Positions 13,423-38,063 are shown, numbered from the stretch's first letter. The stretch is DNA of 64,000 nt from an uncultured Solirubrobacterales bacterium (GCA_963725925.1 CAVSAY010000016.1:102146-166145); one strand, 5' to 3'. The notes: generated by a model not told the origin, from the sequence alone. A program made the numbers and translations.

Positions 13423-13973
13423 ACCTCGAGGGCGTGTTTCTCGCCCGCCACGGCGAGACCAACGACAACCTCGAGCCGATCCGCGTCCAGGGGTTCACAG
13501 ACACGCCGCTCAACGACACCGGGCGCCGCCAGGCCGCCGAGCTGGCCGAGCGCGTCGCCGGCATGGGAATCCGTTCGCTGTGGGCCTCCGACCTCAGCCG
13601 CGCGACCGAGACCGCGCGGATCGTCGGCGCTCGGATCGGGATGGAGCCGCGTCTGGACCCGCGGCTGCGGGAGGCCAACCGGGGCGAGTGGGAGGGCTAC
13701 CGGTTCATCGACATCGCGCGCGATGACCCCGACGGATACGCGGCGTGGCTGCGCGCGGGTGAGTCGTTCCGGTTCCCGGGCGGCGAGTCGCTGCGCGATC
13801 AGCTCGACCGGGTGACGGCCGCGGCGCAGGACATCCACCGCACCGGCGAGCTGCCTGCCCTGGCGGTGTGTCACGGCGGATCGATCCGCGTGATGCTCTG
13901 CCGCCGCGATCCGCGCGGGCTCGACGCCTTCCACGAGTTCAAGGTCCCCAACGTGGCGGTGGTGGCGCTGTGA
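13419..13973 (+). CDS. Histidine phosphatase (phosphoglycerate mutase superfamily)
   Basis: GTG start overlaps the comA stop; LARHGET, LREANRGEWEG, VCHGGSIR. Confidence 0.88.
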   Translation: MNLEGVFLARHGETNDNLEPIRVQGFTDTPLNDTGRRQAAELAERVAGMGIRSLWASDLSRATETARIVGARIGMEPRLDPRLREANRGEWEGYRFIDIARDDPDGYAAWLRAGESFRFPGGESLRDQLDRVTAAAQDIHRTGELPALAVCHGGSIRVMLCRRDPRGLDAFHEFKVPNVAVVAL

Positions 13974-15772
13974 GCAAGCTGCCGGTCATCGCGTTCGCGT
14001 CGCTCGCGGCCGCGACGGTCGGCGCATTCTTCGTCACCCAGCACCTGAAGGTCACCACGCCGCTGATCTCCGGCTTCCCGGCCCCGGCCCCGTCGTGGAT
14101 CAATCCCGTCGACGGCAAGGTGTGCGGCGGCGTCGGCCACAGGAAGATGTTCGTGTCCTTCTATCTGCAGCACCGCTCCGACGACGTCGACGTGTACGTC
14201 GTCGACCAAGGCGGCACGATCGTCCGCACGCTGGCCTCGGGCCGGCACATGCGCCGCGGCGTGCGAACGCCGGACGGAGTCTTCTCCTGGAACGGCCGCG
14301 AGGACAACGGCCAGGTCGCGCCCGACGGCGTCTACTACATCCGCGTCGCGCTGATCCACCAGGGCCGCACGGCGGATATCTCCAACCAGGCCGGACCGTT
14401 GCCGGTCACCGTGCGCACGATCCCGCCGCGCCCGAAGGTGACCGGTGTGTCGCCGTCGCTGATCCCGCAGGGGGATCGCCCGGTGACGATCCATTACACG
14501 GGCAACCAGCATCAGGGCACGACGATCCTCCTCTACCGGACCGACCTGCCGGGCGCGCCGATGGTCAAGAGCTTCCGGACCGCCGGTGGCGCGCGCAGCG
14601 CCGTGTGGGACGGCAAGATCCACGGGCGCCCGGCGCCCGCGGGCACTTACCTGGTCGGCCTCGAAGTGACCGATCGCGCCTGCAACACGGGGCGCTTCCC
14701 GCTCGTGGTCCCGCCCGCGCCGGGCACGACCCCGCACGCCGGCGTGACCGTGCGCTACCTCGCCGCCGAGCCGCCGTCGCGTCCGGTCCCCGCGGGCTCG
14801 GACACGACCGTGTACGTCGACGCGCGCCAGCAGCCCTACCACTGGGCGCTGCGCCGGGCGGGCGCCAAGAAGATCCTCGCGAGGGGCACCACCTCGGACT
14901 TCACGCTGAATCTGAAGGTGCCGTCGGGACCGGCCGGCCTGTATCAGCTGGCGCTGCGCTCGGGCGGCAACCGGACGGTGGTTCCGATCGTCGCCAGCGT
15001 GCCGGCCGTGACCCACGGGCCGCGCGTGCTGGTCGTCCTGCCCGCGCTCACGTGGCAGGGGCGCAACCCCGTCGACGACGACGGCGACGGCGTGCCGGAC
15101 ACGCTCGAGAACGGCGACTCGATCGCGCTTGACCGGCCGCTGGCCAACGGCTATCCCGCGGGGGCGGTCGACGAGGGCGGGCTGCTGGCATACCTCGACA
15201 AGACTCACCGTGCCTACGACCTGACGACCGACGTCGGCCTGGTCTCGGGCTTCGGGCCCACCCTGCAGGGCCACACCGGCGTGATCCTCGCGGGGAGCCT
15301 GCGCTGGCTGCCGGGCTCGCTGGCGACGACATTGCGCGCATACGTGGCAAACGGAGGCCACGTGGTGTCGATCGGGACCGACTCGATGCTGCGCTCGGTC
15401 ACCGTCGCGGGCCAGCACGCGCTGCGCCCGAGCAAGCCGGCCGCCGCCGACCCGCTCGGCGCCAAGCCGGGCGCGGTGGTCCTGCACTCGAGCAACCTGA
15501 TCACGGTGATCCGCGACGGCCTGGGGATCTTCGCGCAGACGTCGGGCGCGTTTCCGGGCTTTCACAACTACCAGTCGATCCCCGCGGTGGCCCCTCCAGG
15601 GCAAGTCGCATCGGAGGCCGGCGCGACGACCAGCGCGCCGAGCATCGTCGGCTACCGGCTCGAGCGCGGGACCGTGGTCGACATCGGCTTGATCGGATTC
15701 GGATCGAGCCTCGCACACAACGTCGACGCCCAGGAGCTGACGAACAGTCTCTGGAAGATGCTGTCCCGATAG
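13970..15772 (+). CDS. Exported protein with FlgD Ig-like domains and an N,N-dimethylformamidase-beta-like C-terminal domain
   Basis: GTG start overlaps the upstream stop. Signal/TM segment, FSWNGREDNG and VWDGKIHG (FlgD_ig-like), RVLVVLPALTWQGRN motif. Confidence 0.6.
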   Translation: MSKLPVIAFASLAAATVGAFFVTQHLKVTTPLISGFPAPAPSWINPVDGKVCGGVGHRKMFVSFYLQHRSDDVDVYVVDQGGTIVRTLASGRHMRRGVRTPDGVFSWNGREDNGQVAPDGVYYIRVALIHQGRTADISNQAGPLPVTVRTIPPRPKVTGVSPSLIPQGDRPVTIHYTGNQHQGTTILLYRTDLPGAPMVKSFRTAGGARSAVWDGKIHGRPAPAGTYLVGLEVTDRACNTGRFPLVVPPAPGTTPHAGVTVRYLAAEPPSRPVPAGSDTTVYVDARQQPYHWALRRAGAKKILARGTTSDFTLNLKVPSGPAGLYQLALRSGGNRTVVPIVASVPAVTHGPRVLVVLPALTWQGRNPVDDDGDGVPDTLENGDSIALDRPLANGYPAGAVDEGGLLAYLDKTHRAYDLTTDVGLVSGFGPTLQGHTGVILAGSLRWLPGSLATTLRAYVANGGHVVSIGTDSMLRSVTVAGQHALRPSKPAAADPLGAKPGAVVLHSSNLITVIRDGLGIFAQTSGAFPGFHNYQSIPAVAPPGQVASEAGATTSAPSIVGYRLERGTVVDIGLIGFGSSLAHNVDAQELTNSLWKMLSR

Positions 15773-15781
15773 GCCCCGCCC

Positions 15782-17266
15782 GTGCTTGCGTATCTGAAGC
15801 GGCTGGTCACCACGCTGGCGGCGTACCAGATCGCGGACGTCGTCTCGAAGTTCATCGCCGTCCTGCTGCTGCCGGTGTACACGCGCTACATCGACCCGGC
15901 CGGCTACGGCGAAGTCGAGCTGCTCGCCAACGGGGTGATCTTCATCAGCATCGTGGTGCGCTTCGGGATGATCGAGGCGTTCCTGCGCTTCTACTTCACC
16001 GACGCCGACCAAAGCCGTCGCGACGCCCTGACGCGGCGCGCGGTGGCGTTCACGCTGATCGCCACGACGATCGTCTCGCTGATCCTCGCGGCCGCAGCCG
16101 AGCCGCTGTCAAATCTCGTCCTCGGTCACGACGACGCCGCGATCTTCCGGGTCGCGGTGCTGGGGCTGTGGGCGTTCACCAACCTCGAGCTGGCCTACGG
16201 GATCCTCCGCGTCGACGAGCGCGTGCGCATCTACGCGATCGCGTCGCTGACCAACGTGCTGATGACCGTGGCCGGCTCGCTCGTGCTGGTGGTCGCGCTG
16301 GACCAGGGTCCGAAGGGCCTGCTGCTCGCCAACTACGGCGCGTCCACGCTCGTGCTCCTCGGCCTCTGGTGGGTGATGCGCGGCCGCCTGCGCCCCAGGC
16401 GCAGGACGAACGCCGGCGGCGCCGAGCGGCTGGCGCCGCTGCTGCGCTTCGGCCTGCCGACGGTGCCCGCGGAGGCCTCGGTGTACGCGCTCAGCCTGAT
16501 CGACCGCTTCTACCTGTACCACAGCAGCAGCCCGTCGGTGGCCGGCCTGTACTCGATCGCGGTCAAGCTCGCGGGCGCGGTCGCGTTCATCGTCCGCGCG
16601 TTCCAGTACGCGTGGCCGCCGCTGGCCTACTCGGTCACCGACGACGCCGAGGCCGCGCGCCTGTACGGCCTGGTGACGACCTACTACGTGCTGATCAGCG
16701 GGTGGGTGGTGGCGGGCCTCGCGCTCGGAGGCCGGTGGGTGGTGCGGCTGCTCACCGCGCCGTCGTTCTATGACGCCTACAAGGCGTTGCCGTGGGTCGC
16801 GCTGGGCTGGGCCATGTATGGGCTGTGGGTGGTGTTCCTGGTCATCGCGGGACGCGCCCATGTCACCACGCGCAACTTCCCGGCCGCGATCGCGGGGCTG
16901 GCAGCCAACGTGGTGCTGCTGCTCGTGCTGGTCCCGCCGCTGGGAATCGCCGGCGCCGGCATCGCCCTGTGTGGCGCGTACGTGGCGATGCTGGGCGTGA
17001 TGCACGTGCTGACCCGCAAGCTGTTCGAGGTCGCGTTCGAGTGGCGCCGGCTGGCGCACATCGTGCTCGTGATGGGCGGGATCGCCGCAGTCGGCGACCT
17101 GGTGCTGCCGACGCACGGAGCGGTGGGGCTGCTGTCGCGCATCGCGGCCTTCCTGGCGATCGTGCCGTTGCTGTACCTGACGGGCTTCGCCCACCCGCAG
17201 GAGGTCGGTAACCTGCGCCGCGTGCTCGGCCGCGTCGGGGCCGGATCCCGAGGTAGGGCCGCATGA
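15782..17266 (+). CDS. Wzx/MATE-like oligosaccharide flippase
   Basis: About 12-14 hydrophobic helices; LLPVYTRYI..YG, DRFYL, GLYSIAVKLA, FQYAWPP. Confidence 0.87.
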   Translation: MLAYLKRLVTTLAAYQIADVVSKFIAVLLLPVYTRYIDPAGYGEVELLANGVIFISIVVRFGMIEAFLRFYFTDADQSRRDALTRRAVAFTLIATTIVSLILAAAAEPLSNLVLGHDDAAIFRVAVLGLWAFTNLELAYGILRVDERVRIYAIASLTNVLMTVAGSLVLVVALDQGPKGLLLANYGASTLVLLGLWWVMRGRLRPRRRTNAGGAERLAPLLRFGLPTVPAEASVYALSLIDRFYLYHSSSPSVAGLYSIAVKLAGAVAFIVRAFQYAWPPLAYSVTDDAEAARLYGLVTTYYVLISGWVVAGLALGGRWVVRLLTAPSFYDAYKALPWVALGWAMYGLWVVFLVIAGRAHVTTRNFPAAIAGLAANVVLLLVLVPPLGIAGAGIALCGAYVAMLGVMHVLTRKLFEVAFEWRRLAHIVLVMGGIAAVGDLVLPTHGAVGLLSRIAAFLAIVPLLYLTGFAHPQEVGNLRRVLGRVGAGSRGRAA

Positions 17267-18627
17267 GCCGGCCTGTGGTGAGCGTCGTGATGCCGTTCGC
17301 GGGGGACGGCGCGGCGGCTGCTGCCGCGATCGAGACGCTGCTCGCGCTCGACCTGCGTCCCGGAGACGAGCTGATCCTCGCCGACAACTCCGTGCTGCCC
17401 GTCGCCTCGACGGTTGCGACGGGAGCGGTCAAGGTCATACGCGCGATCGCCGAGCGCTCGCCGGCGCATGCTCGCAACGCCGGCGCCGCCATCGCGCACA
17501 ACGACTGGATCCTGTTCCTGGACTCCGATTGCCTGGTGCACCACGGGCTGCTCGACGCCTACTTCGCGCTGCCCGTCTCCGACGATGTCGGGGCGCTGGC
17601 GGGCGAGGTGCTCGCCGCGCCGGCGGGCGACACGCTGGCTGCGCGCTATGGCGCGGCTCGGGGGTTCCTGAGCCAGGAGGCGCACCTGCGCCATCCTTAC
17701 CGTCCGCGCGCCGTGGCCGCCAACCTCCTAGTCAGAGCCGCCGCGTTCGAGCAGGTCGGAGGCTTCTACGAGGGCGTTCGCGCGGGCGAGGACACCGACT
17801 TCAGCTGGCGCATCCAGGCCGCCGGATGGCGCCTCGAGCTGCGAACGGAAGCGAGCGTCGAGCACCGCTACCGGACCACGTTGAGGGATCTGCGCAGCCA
17901 ATGGCGCGGCTACGCGGCCGGCCGGGCGTGGCTCGCTCGCCGCTACGACGGCTTCGAGCCAGAGCCCGCCCTGCGCCGCGCATCGTCGCGAGCATGGCGC
18001 CGGGTTCGCCGGGCGCCCGGGGCGGACCGGCCCACGGCTCGAAGCCGGGAGCTCGTCGCCGCGCGCACCGGGCGGCTGGAGCGCGGGGGCTACGCGCTCC
18101 TGGACGCGCTCCTGTCCGCCGAGGAATTGGCGGGCTTTGCGCTCTCCAACCGGCCGATCCGGACTGCCACGCGCACACCTGCGCAGGTCGTGCTGGTCGC
18201 CGACCGCTTTCCGGCCCGGGGCGATCCGCTCGTCGAATTCGCGCAATCGTTGGGCGGCGCCCGCGTCGAGGCCGCGGCGCGCCCGGAGTCGCTGGATGCC
18301 GGGGTCACGCGCGAGCTGGCCGTCGAGTATCGGGAGGACGACGGCTTTGCGGCGCGCCTGGTGGCACTCGGCAGCCTGGCACTGACGCATCCGGTGCGGT
18401 GCGTGCTTGACCGCCTGCGGCGCGGGCCCGGCGAGCCCAAGCTGTGGGCGATCGCCCCCGCCGTCCGCCGGCTGGAGCACGAGCGCGACGCTCGCGTGCT
18501 CGCGCTGGGTGGTGCGGACACCCGCGCGACCGCTCGCCGCATCGCCAAGCTGGCCGGTCGCCCGCTCGACGCGGTCCCGCGCCAGGCCCGCCGCAGCGGG
18601 CCCTTGCATCCCGGCCGTCGCGGCTGA
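17263..18627 (+). CDS. Glycosyltransferase family 2 with additional C-terminal region
   Basis: VSVVMPF, ARNAGA, ILFLDSD (DxD), GGFYE, GEDTDFSWR. Confidence 0.85.
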   Translation: MSRPVVSVVMPFAGDGAAAAAAIETLLALDLRPGDELILADNSVLPVASTVATGAVKVIRAIAERSPAHARNAGAAIAHNDWILFLDSDCLVHHGLLDAYFALPVSDDVGALAGEVLAAPAGDTLAARYGAARGFLSQEAHLRHPYRPRAVAANLLVRAAAFEQVGGFYEGVRAGEDTDFSWRIQAAGWRLELRTEASVEHRYRTTLRDLRSQWRGYAAGRAWLARRYDGFEPEPALRRASSRAWRRVRRAPGADRPTARSRELVAARTGRLERGGYALLDALLSAEELAGFALSNRPIRTATRTPAQVVLVADRFPARGDPLVEFAQSLGGARVEAAARPESLDAGVTRELAVEYREDDGFAARLVALGSLALTHPVRCVLDRLRRGPGEPKLWAIAPAVRRLEHERDARVLALGGADTRATARRIAKLAGRPLDAVPRQARRSGPLHPGRRG

Positions 18628-19766
18628 TGCGCGTCCAAGTCGTCGACCCGTCGGCGTTCACGCCTCCCTATGACCACGCGCTGTCCGCGGCGCTGGCGCG
18701 CGCCGGCGCCGACGTCGAGCTGATCACCAGCCGCTTCGCCTACGGGTCGGTCGCCGCGCCCGACGGCTACGCGCTGCGTGAGCACTTCTACCGGCACGCG
18801 CGCGGAGCTGCGGGCAGCCGCGTACGGTCCTTGACCAAGTTCGCCGAGCACGTGCCCGACATGCTGCGCTACCGGCGGGTCGCCCGCGACGCGGACGTGG
18901 TCCATTTCCAATGGCTCGACGTGCAGTGGCTGGACCGTCTCCTGCTGCCCCGCGGGCCGCTCGTGCTCACCGCCCACGACCTGCTGCCCCGCGAGCCGCG
19001 CCCCGGCCAGGTCGCCGCGCAGCGGCGGCTGTATGACGCCGTCGATGCGCTCGTCGTGCACTCGGAGTACGGGCGCGGGCAGCTCGTGCGAGCGCTCGGC
19101 CTCGACGCGGGCAAGGTTCACGTGATCCACCATGGGGCGTTCGAGCACCTGGCGCGGCTGCCGTCGCAGCCGCTCGCGGCCGAGCTCGAGCAGGTCGCCG
19201 GCCCGGTCGTGTTGTTCTTCGGGCTGCTGCGCCCGTACAAGGGGGTTGACGTGCTGCTGGAGGCGTGGCGCGGGATGCCGGCGGGGGCCGAGCTGTGGAT
19301 CGTGGGACGCCCGCGAATGGACATCGCGCCGCTGCTCGCGAGCGCTCCCCCGGGTGTGCGGTTCATCTCGCGCTACGTCCCGGACGCCGAGCTCGCGTCC
19401 TACTTCCGCCGCGCCGACGTCGTCGTGCTCCCGTACTCGCGCACGGAGCGCTTCGACCAGTCCGGGGTGCTGGCGACGGCGCTGGCGTTCGCCAAGCCGG
19501 TGGTGCTCAGCGACGTGGGCGGCTTCGGCGAGGTCGCCGCGACCGGCGCCGGGGTGTTGGTGGAGCCCGGGGATGTTGGTTCGCTGGCGGCCGCGCTTGG
19601 TCGCCTGCTGGGCGACGAGGCCGAGCGCGCGCGGCTGGCGCAGGCGGCGCGGGAGGCTGCGGCCGGGCCGTATTCGTGGGACCAGGCCGCGCGCCGAACG
19701 CTCGACGTCTACCGCGGGCTGACGGGTGCGCGTGACGGCGCTGCGGCACAATCGGCGCCGTCGTGA
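18627..19766 (+). CDS. Glycosyltransferase family 4
   Basis: ATG overlaps the upstream TGA; FFGLLRPYKG, VVLPYSRTERFDQSGVLATALAFAKPVVLSDVGG. Confidence 0.9.
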   Translation: MRVQVVDPSAFTPPYDHALSAALARAGADVELITSRFAYGSVAAPDGYALREHFYRHARGAAGSRVRSLTKFAEHVPDMLRYRRVARDADVVHFQWLDVQWLDRLLLPRGPLVLTAHDLLPREPRPGQVAAQRRLYDAVDALVVHSEYGRGQLVRALGLDAGKVHVIHHGAFEHLARLPSQPLAAELEQVAGPVVLFFGLLRPYKGVDVLLEAWRGMPAGAELWIVGRPRMDIAPLLASAPPGVRFISRYVPDAELASYFRRADVVVLPYSRTERFDQSGVLATALAFAKPVVLSDVGGFGEVAATGAGVLVEPGDVGSLAAALGRLLGDEAERARLAQAAREAAAGPYSWDQAARRTLDVYRGLTGARDGAAAQSAPS

Positions 19767-20908
19767 CCGCGCTTGCGATCGTCTTCTGGATCTCGGTCGG
19801 CCTGGTGCTCTACGCCCACGCCGGCTATTTCCTGCTGCTCTGGGTCGTTGATCGGCTGCGGCCCGGGCGGCGTGCGGCGACGCGCGCGTCGGCGGGAGCC
19901 GAGATCGGCGAGCTCCCCGCGGTGTCTGTGATCGTCGCCGCCTATGCGGAGGCCGAGGTGATCGCGCGCCGTCTCTCCAACCTCCGCGCGCTCGACTATC
20001 CGCCGGCGCTGCTCGAAGTGATCGTCGCCTGCGACGGGTCGCCCGACGACACGGCCCAGCGCGCCCGCGACGCCGGCGCCGACGTCGTGCTGGAGCTTCC
20101 GCGAGGCGGCAAGATCCGCGCCCAGGACGCGGCCGTGAAGCGCTCGCAACGCGAGATCGTGGCGTTCTCCGACGCAAACGTGCAATGGGAGCCGGCCGCG
20201 CTGCGGCGGCTGGTCGCGCCGTTCACCGATCCACGGGTCGGTTACGTTTGCGGGGATGTCAGCTTCGTCAACGAGCGCGGGACCAACCAGGAGGGCGTGT
20301 ACTGGCGCTACGAGATGGCGCTGCGTTCCCTGGAGTCCCGGGTCCGCTCGGTGACGGGCGGCAACGGCGCGATCTACGCCACCCGGCGGGAGGCGTACCT
20401 GTTCGTCGACCCGATCATGGGCCACGACCTGTCGTTCCCGTTCAACATGGTCAAGCACGGGTGGCGGGCGGTGTACGCATCGGACGCGCACGCGAGCGAG
20501 AAGATGGTTCCGACGATCGAGGGCGAGTTCGCGCGCAAGCGCCGGATGAGCAGTCACATGTGGCCGATCGTGCTGCGCGGCGGGATGCTGTCGCCGCGGG
20601 GATACGACCTGGTCTACGCGCTGATGATCTTCTCGCACCGGATCGTCCGCTACCTCACGCCGTTCCTGCACGTGATCGCGTTCGTCGCGAACATCCTGCT
20701 GCTCGGCCAGGGGTGGGTCTACGCCGTGGCGCTCGCGCTCCAGGTGGCGATCCTGCTCGCGGCCGTCGTCGCGCCGCTGGTGCGCGCGAGACCTTTCTTG
20801 ATCGCGCGCTACTACGTGCTCACGACCGCGTCGCTGGCGGCGGGATTGTGGGACTGGCTGCGCAGCGGCACGGCGGCCGGCTGGGAGCCGGCGGAGGGGA
20901 CTCGGTGA
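19763..20908 (+). CDS. Glycosyltransferase family 2 (CesA-like, membrane)
   Basis: VSVIVAAYAE, DGSPD, GKIRAQ, FSDAN, GGNGAIYA; C-terminal TM helices. Confidence 0.88.
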   Translation: MTALAIVFWISVGLVLYAHAGYFLLLWVVDRLRPGRRAATRASAGAEIGELPAVSVIVAAYAEAEVIARRLSNLRALDYPPALLEVIVACDGSPDDTAQRARDAGADVVLELPRGGKIRAQDAAVKRSQREIVAFSDANVQWEPAALRRLVAPFTDPRVGYVCGDVSFVNERGTNQEGVYWRYEMALRSLESRVRSVTGGNGAIYATRREAYLFVDPIMGHDLSFPFNMVKHGWRAVYASDAHASEKMVPTIEGEFARKRRMSSHMWPIVLRGGMLSPRGYDLVYALMIFSHRIVRYLTPFLHVIAFVANILLLGQGWVYAVALALQVAILLAAVVAPLVRARPFLIARYYVLTTASLAAGLWDWLRSGTAAGWEPAEGTR

Positions 20909-24956: not shown

Positions 24957-25832
24957 GCGCTCAGCCAGCCGGCGATCAGCTCGCCGATCTGCGGTCCCGC
25001 ATCCTCCTGCAGGAAGTGGCTCGCGTCGGCGATCACGTGATCGATCTCGGTGCCCAGCGCTGCGGCGAACCGCTGTCCGGTCTCGAGCGGCAGCACCGGG
25101 TCTGAGTCCGCCCACAGAAACAGCTTCGGCCGCGTGTCGCCGCGCAGCGCCTCGAGCACGCGCTGCCCGGCGGCCGCGCCGGGCATGTCGGGGGAGATCG
25201 GCAGGATCAGCGGAAACGCGCGGGCGCCGGCCTTGGACGCAGCGCTCGGGTACGGCGCCTCATAGCCGGCGATCACCTCGTCGCCGGGGTCGTTCTTGCA
25301 GGCGCGGCGGACCAGCAGCCCGACCGGCAGGTCCTCCGTGCGCTCGCACGAAATTGCGGAATGCCATCCACGCCTCGTTCATGTGCTGGTGGCCGGTGAA
25401 CAGGCCCGTGTCGAGCGCGACGATGCGGTCGACGCGGTCGGCCATCTCGACCGCCACCCGCAGCCCGATCGCGCCGCCCCAGTCGTGGACGACGACGGTG
25501 GCGCCGCGCAGGTCGAGCTCCTCGAACAGCGCCAGCATCGCCTCCGTGTGGCGGTCGTAGCTGTACCAGCCGACGTCCAGCGGCTTGTCCGAGCGCCCGA
25601 AGCCGGGCAGGTCCGGAGCGATGCACCGGTAGCCGGCGTCGCGCACCGGCGGCAGCACCTTGCGCCACAGAAACGACCACGTCGGCTCGCCGTGGAAGAA
25701 CACGACCGGGGCACCGTCGCCCTCGTCGAGGTGGGCGAGCCGCAGGCCCTCGTGCTCGCGGTAGGACGACTGAAACGGGAAGTCGGGAAGCCCCTCGAGC
25801 AGCTCGTCGGGGGTGCGTGCGGCGTCGGTCAT
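24953..25832 (-). pseudogene. Haloalkane dehalogenase-like alpha/beta hydrolase, frameshifted at ~25347 (possible sequencing error)
   Basis: HGEPTWSFLWRK, APDLPGFGRSDKP and VVHDWGG in one frame; YEAPYP..KAGARAFP, ASHFLQED in another. Removing one base restores FVERTEDLPVG. Confidence 0.85.
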
Positions 25833-27681: not shown

Positions 27682-28869
27682 ATGCAAATCCTGGTTCTTG
27701 GCGGTGACGGTTACCTGGGGTGGCCGACCGCGCTACATCTGTCCGCCGCCGGGCATGACGTCGCCGTAAACGACAACTTCGCCCGCCGCGGTTACGACGA
27801 GGAGATGGGCGTCGACAGCCTTGTGCCGATCGCCACGCTCGACGAGCGGATCGCCGCCTGGACGGACGTCAGCGGCAAGACGATCAAGGCCTACGTCGGC
27901 GACCTGTGCGACCCGGACTTCACGCACGCGATGGTCAGCGACTTCCGTCCGCAGGCGATCGTCCACTACGCCGAGCAGCGCGCCGCTCCGTACTCGATGA
28001 TCGACCAGGCCCACGCCGTCTACACGCAGACCAACAACGTCGTCGGCACGCTCAACGTGATGTACGCGATCGCCGACACCGACATCGACATCCACCTCGT
28101 CAAGCTCGGGACGATGGGCGAGTACGGCACGCCCAACATCGACATCGAGGAGGGGTGGATCGAGATCGAGCACAAGGGCCGCAGGGACCGCATGATCTAC
28201 CCCAAGCGCCCGGGCTCCTTCTATCACTGCTCGAAGGTCCACGACAGCACCAACATCGAGTTCGGGTGCCGCACGTGGGGCATGCGCGCCACCGACCTCA
28301 ACCAGGGCGTCGTGTACGGCTCAGACACCGAGCAGACCGCCCTCGACCCCAGGCTCGCGACGCGCTTTGACTACGACGGCGTGTTCGGCACCGTGCTGAA
28401 CCGCATGACGATCCAGGCCGTCCTCGGCCACCCGCTCACCGTCTACGGCAACGGCTCGCAGACGCGCGGGCTGATCAACCTGGTCGACACCGTGGAGTGC
28501 ATCCGCCTCGCCTGCGAGAGCCCCGCCGACCCCGGCGAGTTCCGCGTCTTCAACCAGCTGACCGAGACGATGTCGGTGCGCCAGATCGCCGAGACGATCG
28601 CCCGCGAATACCCGGGCGAGTGCACGATCGAGCACGTCGACAACCCGCGTGTCGAGGCCGAGGACCACTACTACAACGTCACCTACCAGGCGCTGGAGGA
28701 ACTGGGCCTGCAGCCGACGCTGCTCGGGACCACGCTGATCGACCAGCTGTTCGACGTGGTCGAGCGCCACAAGGACCGTGTCGACGTCGCCGCGATCCGG
28801 CCGACCGTCCGCTGGCGCGACACCTCGAGCAAGCTCCACGATCCCTCCGGCGCGCTGGCCAAGGCATGA
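27682..28869 (+). CDS. sqdB: UDP-sulfoquinovose synthase (SqdB/SQD1/Agl3 family)
   Basis: GGDGYLGWPTALHLS, EQRAAPYSM, HLVKLGTMGEYGTPNIDIEEG, SFYHCSKVHDS, TDLNQGVVYG, RFDYDGVFGTVLNR, NPRVEAEDHYYN closely match the SqdB consensus. Confidence 0.92.
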   Translation: MQILVLGGDGYLGWPTALHLSAAGHDVAVNDNFARRGYDEEMGVDSLVPIATLDERIAAWTDVSGKTIKAYVGDLCDPDFTHAMVSDFRPQAIVHYAEQRAAPYSMIDQAHAVYTQTNNVVGTLNVMYAIADTDIDIHLVKLGTMGEYGTPNIDIEEGWIEIEHKGRRDRMIYPKRPGSFYHCSKVHDSTNIEFGCRTWGMRATDLNQGVVYGSDTEQTALDPRLATRFDYDGVFGTVLNRMTIQAVLGHPLTVYGNGSQTRGLINLVDTVECIRLACESPADPGEFRVFNQLTETMSVRQIAETIAREYPGECTIEHVDNPRVEAEDHYYNVTYQALEELGLQPTLLGTTLIDQLFDVVERHKDRVDVAAIRPTVRWRDTSSKLHDPSGALAKA

Positions 28870-29843
28870 GCACCGATCTCACAGGCAAGCGCGTGCTCGT
28901 GACCGGGGGTTCCGGGTTCATCGGTCGCCGTGCGGTCGCCGAGCTCACCGGCGCCGGCGCCTCGGTCCGCGTGATCGACCTGCAGCCGCACCCCGATCCG
29001 TCCGTCGACGTCGTCCAGGGGGATCTGGCGGACGCCGACGTGCTCGCCGCGGCGCTGGAGGGCGGCGTTGACGCCGTCGTCCACCTGGCAGCCGTGACGT
29101 CGGTGCTGCGCTCGCTCGAGCACCCCGAGCTGACCTACCGCACCAATGTGGCCGCCACCGCCGGGCTGCTGGAGGGCGCGCGCGCGGCCGGCGCCAAGGC
29201 GCTTGTGTTCGCGTCGACCAACGCAGTCGTCGGGCCGATGGACGGCCCGGCGATTACCGAAGCCGACAGGCTGCGCCCGCTGACGCCGTACGGCTCGACG
29301 AAGGCTGCGGGCGAGATGCTGATGTCGGCCTACACGGCCTCATATGACCTGCGCTGCACGGCCGTTCGCCTCACCAACGTGTACGGGCCCGGCATGCAGG
29401 CCAAGGACAGCATCGTGGCGCGGCTGATGCGCGCGATCCGCCTCGGCGGGAAGTTCGAGATCTACGGGGACGGCCGCCAGGTTCGCGATTATGTGCACGT
29501 GAGCGACGTGATCGCGGCGATGCGGCTTGGTCTGACGAACGAGCAATGGAGCGGGCCGGTGGTGATCGGCGCGGGCCGGTCGCTGTCGGTGCTCGACGTC
29601 GTCGACGCTGTGCGCGACGTCACCGGCGCCGACATCGATGTGGGTCACGGCCCGGCCAAGGCCGGCGAGATGCCGGCGGTCATCGTCGACAACAGCAAGG
29701 CACGCGCGGCCGGCTGGTCGCCTCAATTCACTTTCGAGGAGGGACTCGTGGGCGTATGGCAGGAGTGGTCGCAGATCGACCACGAAGCGGTGTTGGCGGG
29801 CTCCGGGGCCGTCGGCCTGCCGGGCGCTGGAGCGGTGAAATGA
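28866..29843 (+). CDS. NAD-dependent epimerase/dehydratase (extended SDR)
   Basis: ATG overlaps the sqdB stop; TGGSGFIG, HLAA, PYGSTK, RLTNVYGP, DGRQVRDYVHV. Confidence 0.9.
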   Translation: MSTDLTGKRVLVTGGSGFIGRRAVAELTGAGASVRVIDLQPHPDPSVDVVQGDLADADVLAAALEGGVDAVVHLAAVTSVLRSLEHPELTYRTNVAATAGLLEGARAAGAKALVFASTNAVVGPMDGPAITEADRLRPLTPYGSTKAAGEMLMSAYTASYDLRCTAVRLTNVYGPGMQAKDSIVARLMRAIRLGGKFEIYGDGRQVRDYVHVSDVIAAMRLGLTNEQWSGPVVIGAGRSLSVLDVVDAVRDVTGADIDVGHGPAKAGEMPAVIVDNSKARAAGWSPQFTFEEGLVGVWQEWSQIDHEAVLAGSGAVGLPGAGAVK

Positions 29844-30722
29844 GCCTCGCACGCCAGCAGCGCCAGGAGCACGTGGCCGCGCCCGCCAAGCCGTTCGACG
29901 TCGACGCCGAGATCGCCGCGCTCGAGCCCGGAGAGCGCGACGCCGCAGCGCGAGTTCCTGGCGACGTATGCGCCCGGTGCCGGCGCGCCGCTCGCGATCG
30001 TGATCCCCGCCTACAACGAGGCGCCCACCGTCGCCGAGGTGATCGCCGAGATCCCGGGAGAAGCCGCGGGCCTCGCAACCGAGGTGATCGTCGTCGTCGA
30101 CGGCTCCAAGGACGCCACCGCGACGGAGGCTCGCAAGGCCGGCGCGCTGGTCTGCGACGTCCCGGTCAACCGGGGACAGGGCGCGGCGCTGCGGCTCGGC
30201 TACTGGCTGGCCAGGGCGCGCGGATCGCGGATCATCGCCACGATCGACGCCGACGGCCAGTACGAGCCCGAGGAGCTTGGCCGCGTCGTGCAGCCGATCC
30301 TCGACAACCGCGCCGACTTCGTGTCGGGCTCCCGCCGCCTTGGCGCCGAGCTGACCACCGACAAGGTCCGGCATCTCGGCGTGCTCGTGTTCGGCGCGCT
30401 GATCAGCGTGATCGTCCGCCATCGGATCACCGACCCGGCGTGCGGCATCAGGGCGATGCGCTCTGAGGTCACCGGAGCGGTGACGCTCGAGCAGCGCCAG
30501 TATCAGGCGTCCGAGCTGATGATCAGCGCGGCGCTGAACGGCTACCGGCTGGGCGAGGTCCCGACCACGATGCGCGACCGCGGCAAGCACGCGACCGGCA
30601 CCAAGAAGGGCGGGAACTTCGGCTACGGAGTGCGGTTCGCGCGAGCCGCCATCCACACCTGGCGACGCGACCGCAACGCGGCGCGCAACCGGCTGCGGCC
30701 CGAGAAGATCCAGCGCTCGTAG
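29840..30722 (+). pseudogene. DPM1-like (polyprenol-phosphate) glycosyltransferase family 2, frameshift at ~29950 between the N-terminal extension and the catalytic domain
   Basis: ATG 29840 overlaps the upstream stop (MSLARQQ...). The frame changes in GCGCGAG, then IVIPAYNE, VVDGSKD, NRGQGAA, DADGQY, GSRR, DPACGIRA. Confidence 0.8.
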
Positions 30723-31138
30723 AGGAAGAAGCGCAGGGCGTACAGCAGGGCCAGCACGGCGAAGTACGAGCCCGTCACGAGGATCACGCGAAGGCCGTGG
30801 CCTGCGGGAATTCCCTGCACGTGACGGTGCGTCCAGCCGGTGGCAAGCGACAGCGCGACCAGCGTCGACGCCGAGACGATCACGTAAGCCACGATCTCGC
30901 GGCCGAACGCGACGCGGCCCTCGACCTTCCAGGTCCACTTGCGGTTCATCGTCCAGTTCGGAATCGCGCCGGCAACGAATGCCGTGATCGAGCAGACGGT
31001 GGTGGAGAGGCCCATCACGTACAGGACCGCGAACACGATCGCGCTGGTGGTGGCAGCGACGACCGAGGCGATCGCGAAGCGGGCGATGCGCCGATTGAGG
31101 ATCTCGTGGCGCAGGCGATCGATGCGTTCAGCGAACAC
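30623..31138 (-). CDS. GtrA family membrane protein
   Basis: Four TM helices; RFAIASV, NWTMNRKWTWK, RFFLYERWIF. Confidence 0.83.
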   Translation of the reverse strand: MFAERIDRLRHEILNRRIARFAIASVVAATTSAIVFAVLYVMGLSTTVCSITAFVAGAIPNWTMNRKWTWKVEGRVAFGREIVAYVIVSASTLVALSLATGWTHRHVQGIPAGHGLRVILVTGSYFAVLALLYALRFFLYERWIFSGRSRLRAALRSRRQVWMAARANRTP

Positions 31139-31196: not shown

Positions 31197-32090
31197 ATGC
31201 GAATCGAACGTGCCGACGGCGATTTGGCCCTCACCGACGACCTCCTCATCTTCGGGGACAACTCGACTGTGCTCGAGGCGCTCCCGGAGGCGACGTTCGA
31301 CCTCGTCTACCTGGATCCTCCGTTCAACACGGGACGAACGCAATCGCGGCGCACCCTGAAGGTGGTCACCGACGAGGACGGCGACCGCGTGGGCTTCGGC
31401 GGCAAGCGCTACAGCTCGCGGCTGCTGCAGACGCTGAGCTATGACGACGCATTCGCCGACTACCTGGGATTCCTGGAGCCCCGCGTGCGCCGCGCCCGCG
31501 ATCTGCTGGCGCCGCACGGGACCCTGTACTTCCACATCGACTACCGCGAGGCGCACTACTGCAAGCTGCTGCTCGACGAGGTGTTCGGCCGCGACGCTTT
31601 CCTCAACGAGCTGATCTGGACCTACGACTACGGCGCCAAGCCGCGCCGGCGCTGGCCTGCCAAGCACGACACGATCCTGGTCTACGTGCGCACGCCCGGG
31701 GCGCACCACTTCGACGCCGACGCCGTCGAGCGCGAGCCCTACATGGCGCCGGGCCTCGTGAGCGCCGAGAAGGCCGCGCGCGGCAAGCGGCCGACCGACG
31801 TGTGGTTTCACACGATCGTGCCCACCAACAGCCGCGAGAAGACCGGCTACCCGACGCAGAAGCCAGAAGGGGTGCTGCGCCGGATCGTGGCCGCGTCGTC
31901 GCGGCCGGGCGGCTGGTGCCTCGATCCGTTCGCGGGCTCCGGCACGCTCGGGGCTGTTTGTCAGGGGCTTGGCAGGCGGTTCGTGCTGGTCGACTCAAAC
32001 CCGGTGGCGATCGACGTGACGCGCGAGCGCCTCGCCCCGGCTAGCCCGGGCCCGGAACAAGCGGCACGAAGCGCACCGGCTCGAGCTTGA
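31197..32090 (+). CDS. Orphan DNA amino-methyltransferase (N4-C/N6-A, beta-class motif order)
   Basis: LDPPF (motif IV) precedes YPTQKP and LDPFAGSGT (motif I); no restriction endonuclease adjacent. Confidence 0.92.
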   Translation: MRIERADGDLALTDDLLIFGDNSTVLEALPEATFDLVYLDPPFNTGRTQSRRTLKVVTDEDGDRVGFGGKRYSSRLLQTLSYDDAFADYLGFLEPRVRRARDLLAPHGTLYFHIDYREAHYCKLLLDEVFGRDAFLNELIWTYDYGAKPRRRWPAKHDTILVYVRTPGAHHFDADAVEREPYMAPGLVSAEKAARGKRPTDVWFHTIVPTNSREKTGYPTQKPEGVLRRIVAASSRPGGWCLDPFAGSGTLGAVCQGLGRRFVLVDSNPVAIDVTRERLAPASPGPEQAARSAPARA

Positions 32091-36143: not shown

Positions 36144-36774
36144 CGCGCGCTCCCGCCCGATCGACCGCTGTGCGCAACTCGCCGGCGGTCCGCTCCGGGT
36201 CGGCGGCGTCGGTCAGCGCCCGCACGACTGCGATCCGCTCGGCGCCGGCCGCGGCAACGTCGTTGACGTTGGCCGGCGAGATTCCGCCGATCGCGAAGAA
36301 CGGCACGGCCGCGTTTGCCGCCGCGTAGCGGACGAGCTCGAGCCCCACGGCCGGACGGCCGGGCTTGGTCGGCGTCGCGTGGACGGGTCCGACGCCGATG
36401 TAGTCCACGTCGGTGCCGGCCGCCGCGTCGACCTGCGCGGGACTGTGGGTGGAAAGGCCGATGAGCCTGTCAGGCCCGATGAGCTCACGGGCCTGCGCGA
36501 CGGCGGTGTCCTCCTGGCCCACGTGGACGCCGTCGGCGTCGGCGGCGTGGACCAGGTCGGGACGGTCGTTGAGGATGAACAGCGCGTCGTGGGCGTCGCA
36601 GGCGGCCCGGAAGCGGCGTGCCGCAGCGAGGATCTCCTCGTCTGAGCCGTCCTTGATGCGGAGCTGGACGATGTCCACGCCACCGCGCAGCGCGGCCGCC
36701 AGGAAGTCGTCGGGGCGGTCGTCGCAGACGAGGTACAGATGTGCTGCCTGCAGGCGTTGGCGTCTTGCGTCCAC
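36130..36774 (-). CDS. thiE: Thiamine-phosphate synthase
   Basis: GTG 36774; GGVDIVQLRIK, LNDRPD, DGVHVGQED, IGLSTH, DYIGVGPV..TPTK, AIGGI. Confidence 0.95.
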   Translation of the reverse strand: MDARRQRLQAAHLYLVCDDRPDDFLAAALRGGVDIVQLRIKDGSDEEILAAARRFRAACDAHDALFILNDRPDLVHAADADGVHVGQEDTAVAQARELIGPDRLIGLSTHSPAQVDAAAGTDVDYIGVGPVHATPTKPGRPAVGLELVRYAAANAAVPFFAIGGISPANVNDVAAAGAERIAVVRALTDAADPERTAGELRTAVDRAGARVGST

Positions 36775-36811
36775 GCCTGGAGTCTGGCAGGACTGGGGCG
36801 CTAGGATTCGC

Positions 36812-36910
36812 GTCAACGGGAGCCCCACCAGCTTGGGCTGAGAGGGCGGAGACCAGAATCCGCCGACCGTCTGAACCTGAACCGGGTAATGCCGGCGCAG
36901 GGAGGGAAAC
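36812..36910 (+). ncRNA. TPP (thi-box) riboswitch
   Basis: GGGAGC..GGCTGAGAG..GACCG..GAACCTGAACCGGGTAATGCCGGCGCAGGGAG matches the TPP consensus and lies directly upstream of thiO. Confidence 0.95.
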
Positions 36911-36911
36911 A

Positions 36912-38059
36912 TTGCGTGATCGCAGCAGCACATTTGACGTGGCCGTAGTCGGCGGGGGCGTCATCGGCCTGTCCGTCGCCTGGCGCGCCGCTCAACGCGG
37001 CATGCGCGTGATCGTGCTCGAGCGCGCGGAGCCCGGCGGCGGCGCGTCGTGGGTGGCGGCCGGGATGATCGCCCCGATCAGCGAGGCGCGCCCCAAGGAG
37101 CAGTCGCTGCTGCGCCTGTCGCTGGAGAGCGCGCGGGCGTATCCGGAGTTCGTCGCCGAGCTTTCGGCGGCTTCCGGGCGCGACCCGGGCTATCTGGGCT
37201 GCGGCACGCTGGCGGCAGCGCGCGACCGCGACGAGGCCGAGGCACTGGAGCGCGAGCTTGTGATGCGGGTCGGGCTGGGGCTGCCGGTGCGGCGCCTGCG
37301 CCCGAGCGAAGCGCGGCGCCTGGAGCCGGGACTTGCGCCCGCGGTGCGGCTTGCGCTCGACGTCCCCGACGACCACGTGATCGAGCCGCACGCGTTGACC
37401 GGTGCTCTGGCGCAGGCGCTGCTGCGTGCGGGCGGAGAGTTGCGCGCAGGGTGCGAGGTCGCCGAGGTGTGTGTGTCCGACGGCCGGGTCGTGGGTGTTC
37501 GCCTGGCCACGGGGGACCGCATCGAGGCCGATCAGATCGTGATCGCGGCGGGCGTGTGGTCTTCGTCGATCCCCGGAATTCCGCCGGATGCAAGGGTGCC
37601 GCTGCGCCCGGTCAAGGGGCAGACGCTGCGCATGCACGATCCCAGCGGTCCCGGCCTGCTGACGCGCGTGCTGCGGATGAGCCCCGGCTACGTGGTCCCG
37701 CGCGGCGACGGCCGCTACGTTCTCGGAGCGACCATGGAGGAGCGCGGGTTCGACACGACGATCACGGCCGGGGCAATCTTCGAGCAGTTGCGCGACGCGA
37801 TCGAGCTGGTGCCCGGGATCGGCGAATGGGTGATCGACGGGCTCGTGGCCGGACTGCGCCCCGGCACTCCCGACAACGCCCCCGTGCTCGGTCCGGGCGC
37901 GCTCGAGGGACTGCAATGGGCGACGGGTCACTACCGTCACGGGATCTTGCTCGCGCCTGTCACAGCAGATGCGCTCGCGGCCACGCTTGCCGGCGAGGCG
38001 CTCCCCGAGGTCTCGGCGCCGTTCGGGGCGCAACGGTTCGCCGGGGTGGCGGTGGGGGC

Positions 38060-38063
<4 letters not shown>
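36912..38063 (+). CDS. thiO: Glycine oxidase
   Basis: TTG 36912 after GGAGGG; VVGGGVIG, AAGM, PVKGQ, GLRPGTPD, ATGHYRHGILLAP. Confidence 0.94.

Follow-up and report, generated by a model that had tools for sequence, protein, structure and literature searches.

A sqdB-linked GT2 and GtrA locus predicts a lipid-carrier route for a sulfosugar in a soil actinobacterium

The linkage of a sqdB gene to genes of a GtrA-type glycosylation system in an uncultured Solirubrobacterales bacterium raises the question of where the sulfosugar made by SqdB is delivered. Sulfoquinovose is among the most abundant organosulfur compounds, and as far as we know it ends up either in SQDG, the photosynthetic sulfolipid, or in a small number of archaeal N-glycans. 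SqdB/SQD1/Agl3 forms UDP-sulfoquinovose from UDP-glucose and sulfite, and we know of no characterised use of a bacterial SqdB other than for sulfolipid. For the window analysed here (the whole stretch of 64,000 nt) we favour, with a probability of about 0.65, a different destination: judged from sequence, a three-component polyprenyl-phosphate-linked route, with a presumed sugar donor and a presumed GT-C-type transferase, would decorate a putative extracytoplasmic acceptor with sulfoquinovose or with sulfofucose, its C4 epimer. The locus is composed of the following features:

27682-28869, + strand: sqdB, UDP-sulfoquinovose synthase of the SQD1 type, 395 aa (match to PDB 1qrr/1i24)
28866-29843, + strand: extended SDR, 4-epimerase-like, 325 aa (PF01370)
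29840-29947, + strand: 5' part of the GT2 gene, residues 1-36 (translation agrees as far as 'ALEPGER.AA' with that of the intact protein P0002)
29948, + strand: extra G shifting the GT2 reading frame (DNA alignment with JGI contig L125)
29949-30722, + strand: 3' part of the GT2 gene, catalytic domain, PpgS/DPMS/ArnC-like, without C-terminal TM helices (PF00535)
30623-31138, - strand: GtrA-family small membrane protein, 171 aa (PF04138)

The sequence-only reading had described sqdB as coupled to an SDR and a GT2 gene with a convergent GtrA gene, and all four genes were found at these coordinates. The ATG of the SDR gene (28866) overlaps the TGA of sqdB as ATGA, and the ATG of the GT2 gene at 29840 overlaps the TGA of the SDR gene in the same way; on this sequence criterion sqdB, SDR and GT2 are translationally coupled. 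The GtrA gene is convergent with the GT2 gene and overlaps its 3' end by 100 nt. A search for a regulatory RNA or a promoter upstream of sqdB gave no Rfam match and no sigma-70-like site.

SqdB matches Arabidopsis SQD1 (PDB 1qrr) over residues 2-382 with an E value of 1.4e-143, and the identity is roughly 60% as judged by eye on the printed alignment. The residues T144, Y181, H182 and K185 align, with an offset of one residue, with Thr145, Tyr182, His183 and Lys186 of SQD1, reported as its catalytic residues (Mulichak et al. 1999). Across 5 diverse aligned SqdBs, a second paralogue among them, none of the four varies. The score of 460.8 bits with NF041015 is under the 575-bit equivalog cut-off; since only 1 of 14 control genomes passes this cut-off, it looks narrow and fitted to archaea. 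In two genomes (G009 and G002) a 43%-identical SqdB paralogue type occupies the same place, so one type of SqdB can be exchanged for another within the module.

The GT2 domain was recognised by PF00535 (E 3e-23); in NCBIfam it is closest to PpgS (E 6e-29), followed by Dol-P-hexose transferase (E 4e-24) and AglJ (E 2e-22). It scores below every named equivalog cut-off (101 of 370 bits for PpgS, 42 of 529 for ArnC, 80 of 325 for AglJ) and is thus not a PpgS orthologue. The best matches in the PDB are P. furiosus DPMS (5mlz) and ArnC (9bhc/8vxh). Its DAD (DXD) motif is aligned with that of DPMS, and its 'DPACG', an acid-loop motif of the form DP.(S/C)G, lies opposite 'DPVSG' of DPMS. Hydrophobicity analysis revealed a single, weakly hydrophobic internal segment and no C-terminal TM helices. 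In a phylogenetic tree the 64 sqdB-linked GT2 domains are united in one group (UFBoot 94) that excludes 8 in-genome paralogues; the group was recovered in 95% of the bootstrap trees and marks a distinct orthogroup. By sequence, the protein belongs to the class of polyprenyl-phosphate glycosyltransferases (DPMS/GtrB/ArnC/PpgS group), and its sugar donor would be a sulfosugar. The adjoining membrane protein matches PF04138 over model positions 1-117 of 117 (E 6.7e-12; 46.1 bits versus a cut-off of 26.1) and has four hydrophobic segments; by tblastn it is the only GtrA homologue in the genome.

The SDR carries the Pfam Epimerase domain PF01370 (E 1.6e-56) and the motifs GGSGFIG (GxxGxxG), AST (catalytic S/T) and YGSTK (YxxxK), and the dehydratase-type TDE motif is absent from its sequence. 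It is not GalE proper, since the GalE model gives 159 bits and the cut-off is 262. Its gene travels with GtrA and a GT2 of clade B at 48 of 52 loci, accompanies a clade-A GT2 at 0 of 14, and is present at 1 of 36 sqdB loci that have no GT2; this tie to clade-B loci argues against a mere supply of UDP-glucose to SqdB. The nearest solved relative is MoeE5, a UDP-GlcA 4-epimerase (6kv9, E 7e-45), which epimerises a UDP-sugar that is anionic at C6. This counts for the view that the SDR is a UDP-sulfoquinovose 4-epimerase and that the operon makes polyprenyl-phosphate-sulfofucose (6-deoxy-6-sulfo-D-galactose), as does the PpgS paradigm, in which the donor is likewise 4-epimerised (galacto) (PMC9671496). 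Sulfofucose is the C4 epimer of sulfoquinovose, and no biosynthetic pathway for it is known (PMC12421959). We consider this assignment of the SDR possible, although tentative.

Conservation of the arrangement, which the sequence-only reading had left to a check of co-occurrence, holds across the genus. In the same Solirubrobacteraceae genus, SDR and GT2 are kept in 19 of 21 loci, a recurrence that places the arrangement far beyond chance, and GtrA is beside GT2 in 18 of 21. The related MAGs include many long-contig 'MFD' assemblies. The sqdB-SDR-GT2-GtrA linkage is conserved, and it is modular. In four genomes (G015, G005, G007 and G019) the SDR-GT2-GtrA module stands apart from sqdB, which would fit a function in which the sugar loaded by GT2 and GtrA is an ordinary one (Glc, Gal, Man or N-acetylhexosamine), SqdB is in the operon since both feed one glycan, and sulfoquinovose is added in the cytoplasm by an unlinked GT. 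The nearest named relatives of the GT2 do use UDP-GalNAc, GDP-Man or UDP-hexoses, and an EPS-like cluster with other GTs is located 7-14 kb upstream of the sqdB locus. However, a GT2 orthologue was found in 29 of the 30 relatives that encode an SqdB of whatever type and in none of the 11 that lack it (41 relatives, counts that are phylogenetically non-independent), so that all 29 relatives with the orthologue have SqdB. The linkage of sqdB and GT2 furthermore recurs across classes, where it takes the form of four or more distinct gene arrangements and involves three families of GT-C, and no other GT was consistently linked to sqdB when the sqdB loci were compared. An ordinary sugar as cargo is therefore unlikely in our view.

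The GT2 gene itself requires an explanation, since in the assembly its domain is out of frame with the ATG start. The frameshift suspected from the sequence is present, as one extra G at 29948 in comparison with L125, and downstream of the break the first in-frame start is the GTG at 30000. Taken at face value, this would mean a pathway that is dead in this organism, with a decaying cluster and an SqdB that feeds something else or nothing. Yet contig L125, which stems from another metagenome and is 99% identical, encodes an intact GT2 of 293 aa, and the DNA alignment of 1476 bp shows a single internal indel, at 29948, the only other gap being terminal. The extra G is absent from the relatives, and the GT2 is intact in 19 of 19 relatives of the genus that carry the gene. 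At the population level it is not a pseudogene. Frame breaks were also seen in other genes of the same assembly: an alpha/beta hydrolase at ~25347 is broken by a frame shift and intact in another genome (G022), 3 of ~12 SDR paralogues are split between frames, and so are 2 of 5 paralogues of a polytopic protein, c8. In view of the many other single-base frame breaks, also in conserved genes, the break in the GT2 gene is probably an assembly error, and the loss of the pathway in this organism appears improbable.

The sulfolipid route predicts a different set of partners for SqdB. As SqdX reference we used a proxy, an SqdX-like GT4 from a Caldilineaceae sqdB locus that was chosen by gene context; its family has generic source names and at least 68% conservation within the family, and the proxy is not a characterised enzyme. 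A tblastn search with this proxy and with SqdD of S. meliloti gave no match on the contig of the window, in agreement with the initial view that SqdX and SqdD are missing from the window. The only GT4 of the window (18444-19766) belongs to the separate EPS-like cluster. For SqdD and for a GT21 lipid glycosyltransferase no match was found in the genome, and a canonical SqdX was not found elsewhere in the genome either. The best genomic GT4 (C15:161089-162210) might have been an SqdX in disguise, but this was rejected on three grounds. It is 34% identical to the context-defined proxy. It lies in an open frame of ~830 aa, the upstream part of which resembles PHP on visual inspection only. Its occurrence does not follow that of sqdB: it is absent from two genomes that have the cluster (G011 and G012) and present in genomes with only the other SqdB type. 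Since the SqdX reference was a proxy, the lack of SqdX is not absolute. Over all 103 SqdB loci an SqdX-like GT4 was found at only 1 and a GT21 at 2. A membrane sulfoglycolipid as product, either polyprenyl-phosphate-sulfoquinovose as the end product or an anionic SQDG-like lipid standing in for phospholipid when phosphate is scarce, would agree with the characterised uses of bacterial SqdB, with a window lacking a GT-C and with the GT21 lipid-type glycosyltransferase that adjoins sqdB in Acidobacteriota, but is very unlikely given a GT2 of the polyprenyl-phosphate group and not of the GT4, GT8 or GT21 lipid synthases, the GT-C proteins (consuming lipid-linked donors outside the membrane) fused or adjacent to GT2 in many lineages, and the presence of GtrA in 50 of 52 clade-B GT2 loci.

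A recognisable GT-C was not found within the 64-kb window. Elsewhere in the Actinomycetota sqdB adjoins the same GT2 clade together with a GT-C (PMT_2, YfhO or PIG-V-like), and GT-C and GT2 are often combined in a single PMT_2::GT2 fusion protein. Other Solirubrobacterales families have, at sqdB, a PMT_2 GT-C and a GT2 with an N-terminal TM domain, and PMT_2::GT2 fusions (hhalign 95.8%) are neighbours of GtrA and sqdB in members of Kribbella, Amycolatopsis, Pseudonocardiaceae and Micromonosporaceae. In one genome (G016) a PIG-V-like GT-C lies between sqdB and GT2; in the Acidimicrobiia YfhO is directly 3' of sqdB, and BacA adjoins. The genus-specific polytopic protein c8 flanks sqdB in many relatives, and its 5 paralogues in this genome are candidates for the GT-C partner that the genome would encode. 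It has no Pfam or NCBIfam match and no PDB profile match at E <10, and the hhalign probability with the PMT_2 and YfhO profiles is <=1%. The AlphaFold model is poor (pLDDT 54), with AftA and PimE as weak top matches in Foldseek. An assignment of c8 as GT-C was dropped on these grounds.

The comparative tests that were run (conservation in the genus, co-occurrence of GT2 and SqdB, search for a canonical SqdX) were all favourable to the Gtr-type export of a sulfosugar that the sequence-only reading had proposed. The locus would then represent the cytoplasmic and membrane half of a Gtr/PpgS-type extracytoplasmic glycosylation system with a sulfonated hexose as cargo. In the first step SqdB is predicted, from its sequence and its conserved catalytic residues, to convert UDP-glucose and sulfite to UDP-sulfoquinovose. 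The SDR probably acts on this product and could yield the C4 epimer UDP-6-deoxy-6-sulfo-galactose (UDP-sulfofucose). The soluble PpgS-like GT2 would load the sulfosugar, its presumed donor, on polyprenyl phosphate on the inner side of the membrane. By analogy to Rv3632, which we take to be a member of the GtrA family and which has this role for PpgS, GtrA may anchor or activate the GT2, and/or it may flip the lipid-linked sugar. A GT-C-type transferase encoded elsewhere, possibly one of the c8 paralogues, would finally move the sugar to a wall polymer, a lipoglycan or a secreted protein. The cluster is also present in culturable strains (Kribbella sp., Amycolatopsis kentuckyensis, Nonomuraea cypriaca, Actinomadura sp. 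NBRC 104412 and Pseudokineococcus marinus), so the prediction is directly testable.

The locus predicts a sulfonated decoration of the cell surface in a soil actinobacterium, for which we found no description in bacteria. Our literature search, mostly outside subscription journals, yielded nothing that connects sulfoquinovose with polyprenyl carriers or with these taxa. Systems of this kind have been described; what is new is the proposed cargo, of which no published description was found in the literature searched. If the prediction is true, sulfoquinovose would gain a third use, a bacterial one, in soil Actinomycetota that are not phototrophic, as a sulfonated, possibly phosphate-sparing anionic surface decoration; the finding would indicate a new terrestrial source of sulfosugars for sulfoglycolytic and sulfofucolytic bacteria, and the locus would provide candidate genes for the biosynthesis of sulfofucose. 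Should the SDR be a UDP-sulfoquinovose 4-epimerase, the biosynthesis of sulfofucose would have its first known route. Widespread soil Actinomycetota would in that case be a hidden source of the sulfofucose catabolised by soil bacteria, and sulfofucose would serve as a phosphate-free anionic decoration on wall polymers or secreted proteins.

The arabinogalactan galactosamine system of M. tuberculosis and C. glutamicum is composed of the UDP-hexose/HexNAc 4-epimerase Rv3634c, the polyprenyl-P-GalNAc synthase PpgS (Rv3631), Rv3632 and the GT-C Rv3779 (PMC9671496). It shares with the locus a 4-epimerase-type SDR, a soluble GT2 without TM helices, an adjoining small polytopic membrane protein and an actinobacterial host; its GT-C is encoded separately, as is presumably the case here (PMC9671496). 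Unlike in that system, the sugar nucleotide is provided by SqdB and should for this reason be sulfonated at C6, and the GT-C proteins of the relatives are PMT_2, YfhO or PIG-V-like and not Rv3779-like.

The GtrA/GtrB/Gtr* system of O-antigen glucosylation and the CsbB/GtcA/YfhO and ArnC/ArnEF/ArnT systems combine a GT2 polyprenyl-P-sugar synthase with a small membrane protein or flippase and a GT-C acting outside the membrane (PMC11127046). The locus resembles these three-component systems in its GT2 and GtrA, in the YfhO located 3' of sqdB in Acidimicrobiia, and in having ArnC and DPMS as closest solved relatives of the GT2. GtrB, ArnC and DPMS type III have TM helices of their own, in contrast to the GT2 described here, and the sulfonate sugar proposed as cargo is, to our knowledge, reported for none of these systems.

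With the SQDG pathways (SqdB with the GT4 SqdX/SQD2, or SqdB-SqdD-SqdC) the locus has the first enzyme, SqdB, in common, with all catalytic residues present. It differs in its partners, which are of the lipid-carrier type; SqdX, SqdD and GT21 are absent from the window, and none that is convincing was found in the genome.

In archaeal N-glycans, as in Sulfolobus acidocaldarius, where Agl3 provides sulfoquinovose, and in Thermoplasma acidophilum with 6-C-sulfofucose, a sulfosugar made by an SqdB homologue likewise reaches a surface glycoconjugate via lipid-linked intermediates, and a pair of SqdB and 4-epimerase would yield sulfofucose, the sugar of the Thermoplasma acidophilum N-glycan (PMC12421959). 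Dolichol (pyro)phosphate is the carrier on which the archaeal glycans are built, and AglB transfers them en bloc, whereas the route proposed here would operate in a bacterial host, with a single sugar on polyprenyl monophosphate that is transferred by a GT-C.

The window spans C16:102146-166145 of the source genome (G000), which is assembled to 6.4 Mb in 41 contigs with 70% G+C. All four genes of the sqdB locus described by the sequence-only reading proved real at the level of family identity:

27682-28869, + strand: sqdB, full-length match to SQD1
28866-29843, + strand: extended SDR with GxxGxxG and YxxxK motifs
ATG at 29840, + strand: GT2, matching the PpgS, Dol-P-hexose transferase and AglJ families
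30623-31138, - strand: GtrA, convergent, Pfam match above threshold

The coupling by overlapping stop and start codons was also borne out, with an ATGA overlap at both + strand junctions (sqdB/SDR and SDR/GT2). SqdB matched Arabidopsis SQD1 (1qrr) with an E value of 1.4e-143 and about 60% identity, as judged by eye on the printed alignment, and retains the catalytic Thr, Tyr, His and Lys. The SDR lacks the dehydratase signature. The GT2 missed every equivalog cut-off of its top family matches; its top solved relatives are DPMS and ArnC, and no C-terminal TM helices were found. Based on these family and structure matches and the lack of such helices, it is predicted to be a PpgS-type polyprenyl-phosphate glycosyltransferase that is soluble, though it stays under all equivalog cut-offs. 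GtrA has four hydrophobic segments and is the sole GtrA homologue in the genome (tblastn). The 3′ ends of GT2 and GtrA overlap by 100 nt (30623-30722), as they do at least in the relative G022 (locus L022). Downstream of GtrA lies an N6/N4 DNA methylase gene (31197-32090, + strand), a neighbour that is kept in most loci of the genus.

The GT2 frame from the ATG at 29840 agrees with the relatives over 36 residues, beyond which the GT2 domain is encoded in the next frame. An intact GT2 of 293 aa is encoded on L125, a JGI metagenome contig of 1476 bp that is 99% identical in DNA, and the single internal indel between the two sequences is an extra G at 29948 in the window. The gene is intact in all 19 same-genus loci that carry it. 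Other frames in G000 are split as well: an alpha/beta hydrolase (24962-25832, - strand) by one extra base near 25347, intact (294 aa) in G022, 3 of about 12 SDR paralogues, and 2 of 5 paralogues of the membrane protein family c8. These indicate that indels are frequent in the assembly. Taken together with the intact GT2 in L125 and in the genus, they make it very likely that the GT2 break is an assembly indel. The window is a typical example of the cluster, spoiled by a probable assembly error.

Conservation of the arrangement was assessed at 21 same-genus loci anchored on SqdB, and the gene order was unchanged: SDR and GT2 were present in 19 and GtrA in 18. The SDR-GT2-GtrA module also occurs in other settings. 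In G009 and G002 it stands behind another SqdB type, 43% identical and with the catalytic residues present; G000 carries this type as a second copy (C16:210567-211721, outside the window; L001:9567-10757; 340 bits to NF041015), with no GT2 adjacent to it. G015 and G005 have the module without sqdB, adjoining c8. A PIG-V-like GT-C takes the place of the SDR between sqdB and GT2 in G016, and a PIG-V-like gene flanks GT2-GtrA in G007. Among 41 sampled relatives, which are not phylogenetically independent, SqdB of either type was found in 30 and the GT2 orthologue in 29, all within those 30 and none among the 11 without SqdB. The sister family f4 is mixed, with both genes in some genomes and neither in others.

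An SDR whose sole task was to supply UDP-glucose to SqdB would be expected to track sqdB. This one tracks the carrier-loading module instead: it accompanies GtrA and GT2s of clade B in 48 of 52 loci, is found at none of the 14 clade-A loci, and is absent from 35 of 36 sqdB loci without GT2. Because of this, and because its nearest solved relative is the UDP-glucuronate 4-epimerase MoeE5, a reasonable but unproven reading is that the SDR is a UDP-sulfoquinovose 4-epimerase, which would convert UDP-sulfoquinovose to UDP-sulfofucose. According to a 2025 paper, sulfofucose has no known biosynthetic pathway; Fucaceae lipids and Thermoplasma N-glycans are its only reported sources, and it supports growth of a soil Paracoccus (PMC12421959).

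Beyond the genus, a scan of single genomes for each species found 80 further SqdB loci, mostly from Actinomycetota. Gene calling at these loci, protein clustering and Pfam applied to representatives brought out four recurrent designs. In other Solirubrobacterales families, sqdB occurs with PMT_2 GT-C genes (one or two), Acyl_transf_3 and, at 13/13 loci, a GT2 whose N-terminal TM domain is DUF2304-like. Kribbella, Amycolatopsis, Pseudonocardiaceae and Micromonosporaceae have SDR, a fusion of a PMT_2-like GT-C and GT2 (about 750-890 aa; hhalign 95.8% for PMT_2 against its N-terminus), GtrA and sqdB. The third design (Streptosporangiaceae, Actinomadura, Nonomuraea) consists of SDR, GT2, GtrA and sqdB. 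In Acidimicrobiia, YfhO directly follows sqdB, or BacA (undecaprenyl-diphosphatase) and GT2 precede it, with GtrA a few kb off. Carriers that can be cultured include Kribbella, Amycolatopsis kentuckyensis and Nonomuraea cypriaca. The 37 loci of the Actinomycetes set contain GT2 and GtrA in 33 each, SDR in 30 and PMT_2 in 20. The linkage between sqdB, a carrier-loading module and GT-C enzymes is conserved and modular. The 64 sqdB-linked GT2 domains form one group separate from eight G000 paralogues, although they had been picked by similarity, which favours a single group. One locus (L042) lies on the mobilizable plasmid pPA12743CP of the cultured strain Pseudonocardia autotrophica NBRC 12743 (273945-289155), where the genes for an SqdB (67% identical) and a GT2 of 416 aa are divergent; MurJ-like, GNAT, cysteine-synthase-like and MFS genes lie close to them.

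Sulfolipid partners are rare next to sqdB: among 103 SqdB loci, an SqdX-like GT4 was found at one (Caldilineaceae), and GT21 together with PMT_2 at two from Acidobacteriota. In the latter (L111:9244-10416 and L121) sqdB adjoins the ceramide-glucosyltransferase-like GT21 gene and the PMT_2 GT-C, a different and perhaps lipid-directed use of UDP-sulfoquinovose. The reported absence of SqdX and SqdD from the window held: its contig had no match to the Caldilineaceae GT4, a proxy for SqdX defined by gene context (in Chloroflexota, conservation within its family is at least 68%), nor to S. meliloti SqdD. SqdD and GT21 queries gave no match in all of G000. A hidden SqdX was rejected, as the best proxy match was 34% identical, fell within an open frame some 830 aa long and did not track sqdB among relatives. 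Most of the genus and one sister family retain this frame (C15:161089-162948; GT4 domain C-terminal, upstream part PHP-like by eye only).

A candidate new GT-C-like family is c8. Its members are polytopic membrane proteins, about 510-550 aa long, that share a conserved motif in the first loop (RPGYDPYGW...LDTNGAPSWKP) and have no match in Pfam, NCBIfam or PDB. A c8 gene flanks sqdB or the module in many relatives (e.g., L023:9275-10918 and L045:6184-7707) and lies next to sqdB, in divergent orientation, at 10 of the 21 genus loci. G000 has five paralogues (C17:262091-263527, C17:313791-315242, C17:202004-203437, C15:215553-216964 and C13:290246-291575), one of which abuts a further, PI-GT-like GT2 (C13:291685-292308).

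Separate from the sqdB locus, the window contains an EPS-like cluster (13868-20908) that includes a secreted FlgD_ig/DMFA2_C protein and the following genes:

15782-17266: Polysacc_synt flippase
17263-18627: GT2
18444-19766: GT4
19763-20908: GT2

A TPP riboswitch (36806-36920, + strand, 63 bits) falls within the 5′ part of a mechanically called thiO-like DAO ORF (36741-38063), whose true start probably lies beyond about 36920; thiE and thiG are near.

For the sqdB locus we infer what GtrA does, which sugar is donated and to which acceptor, and which GT-C serves in G000: sulfoquinovose, or its C4 epimer sulfofucose, would be carried on a lipid to an acceptor outside the membrane. A full-text literature search of incomplete coverage found neither polyprenyl-linked sulfoquinovose nor any sulfoquinovose described for these taxa. 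Among known systems, the nearest is the galactosamine decoration of mycobacterial and corynebacterial arabinogalactan, in which the 4-epimerase Rv3634c makes UDP-GalNAc, PpgS, aided by Rv3632, loads polyprenyl phosphate, and the GT-C Rv3779 transfers the sugar outside the membrane (PMC9671496). In its working the locus more broadly resembles GtrA/GtrB/Gtr*, CsbB/GtcA/YfhO and ArnC/ArnEF/ArnT (PMC11127046). It differs from these in a distinct GT2 orthogroup and in a cargo that would be sulfonated; the kind of system is already known, and the cargo would be new.
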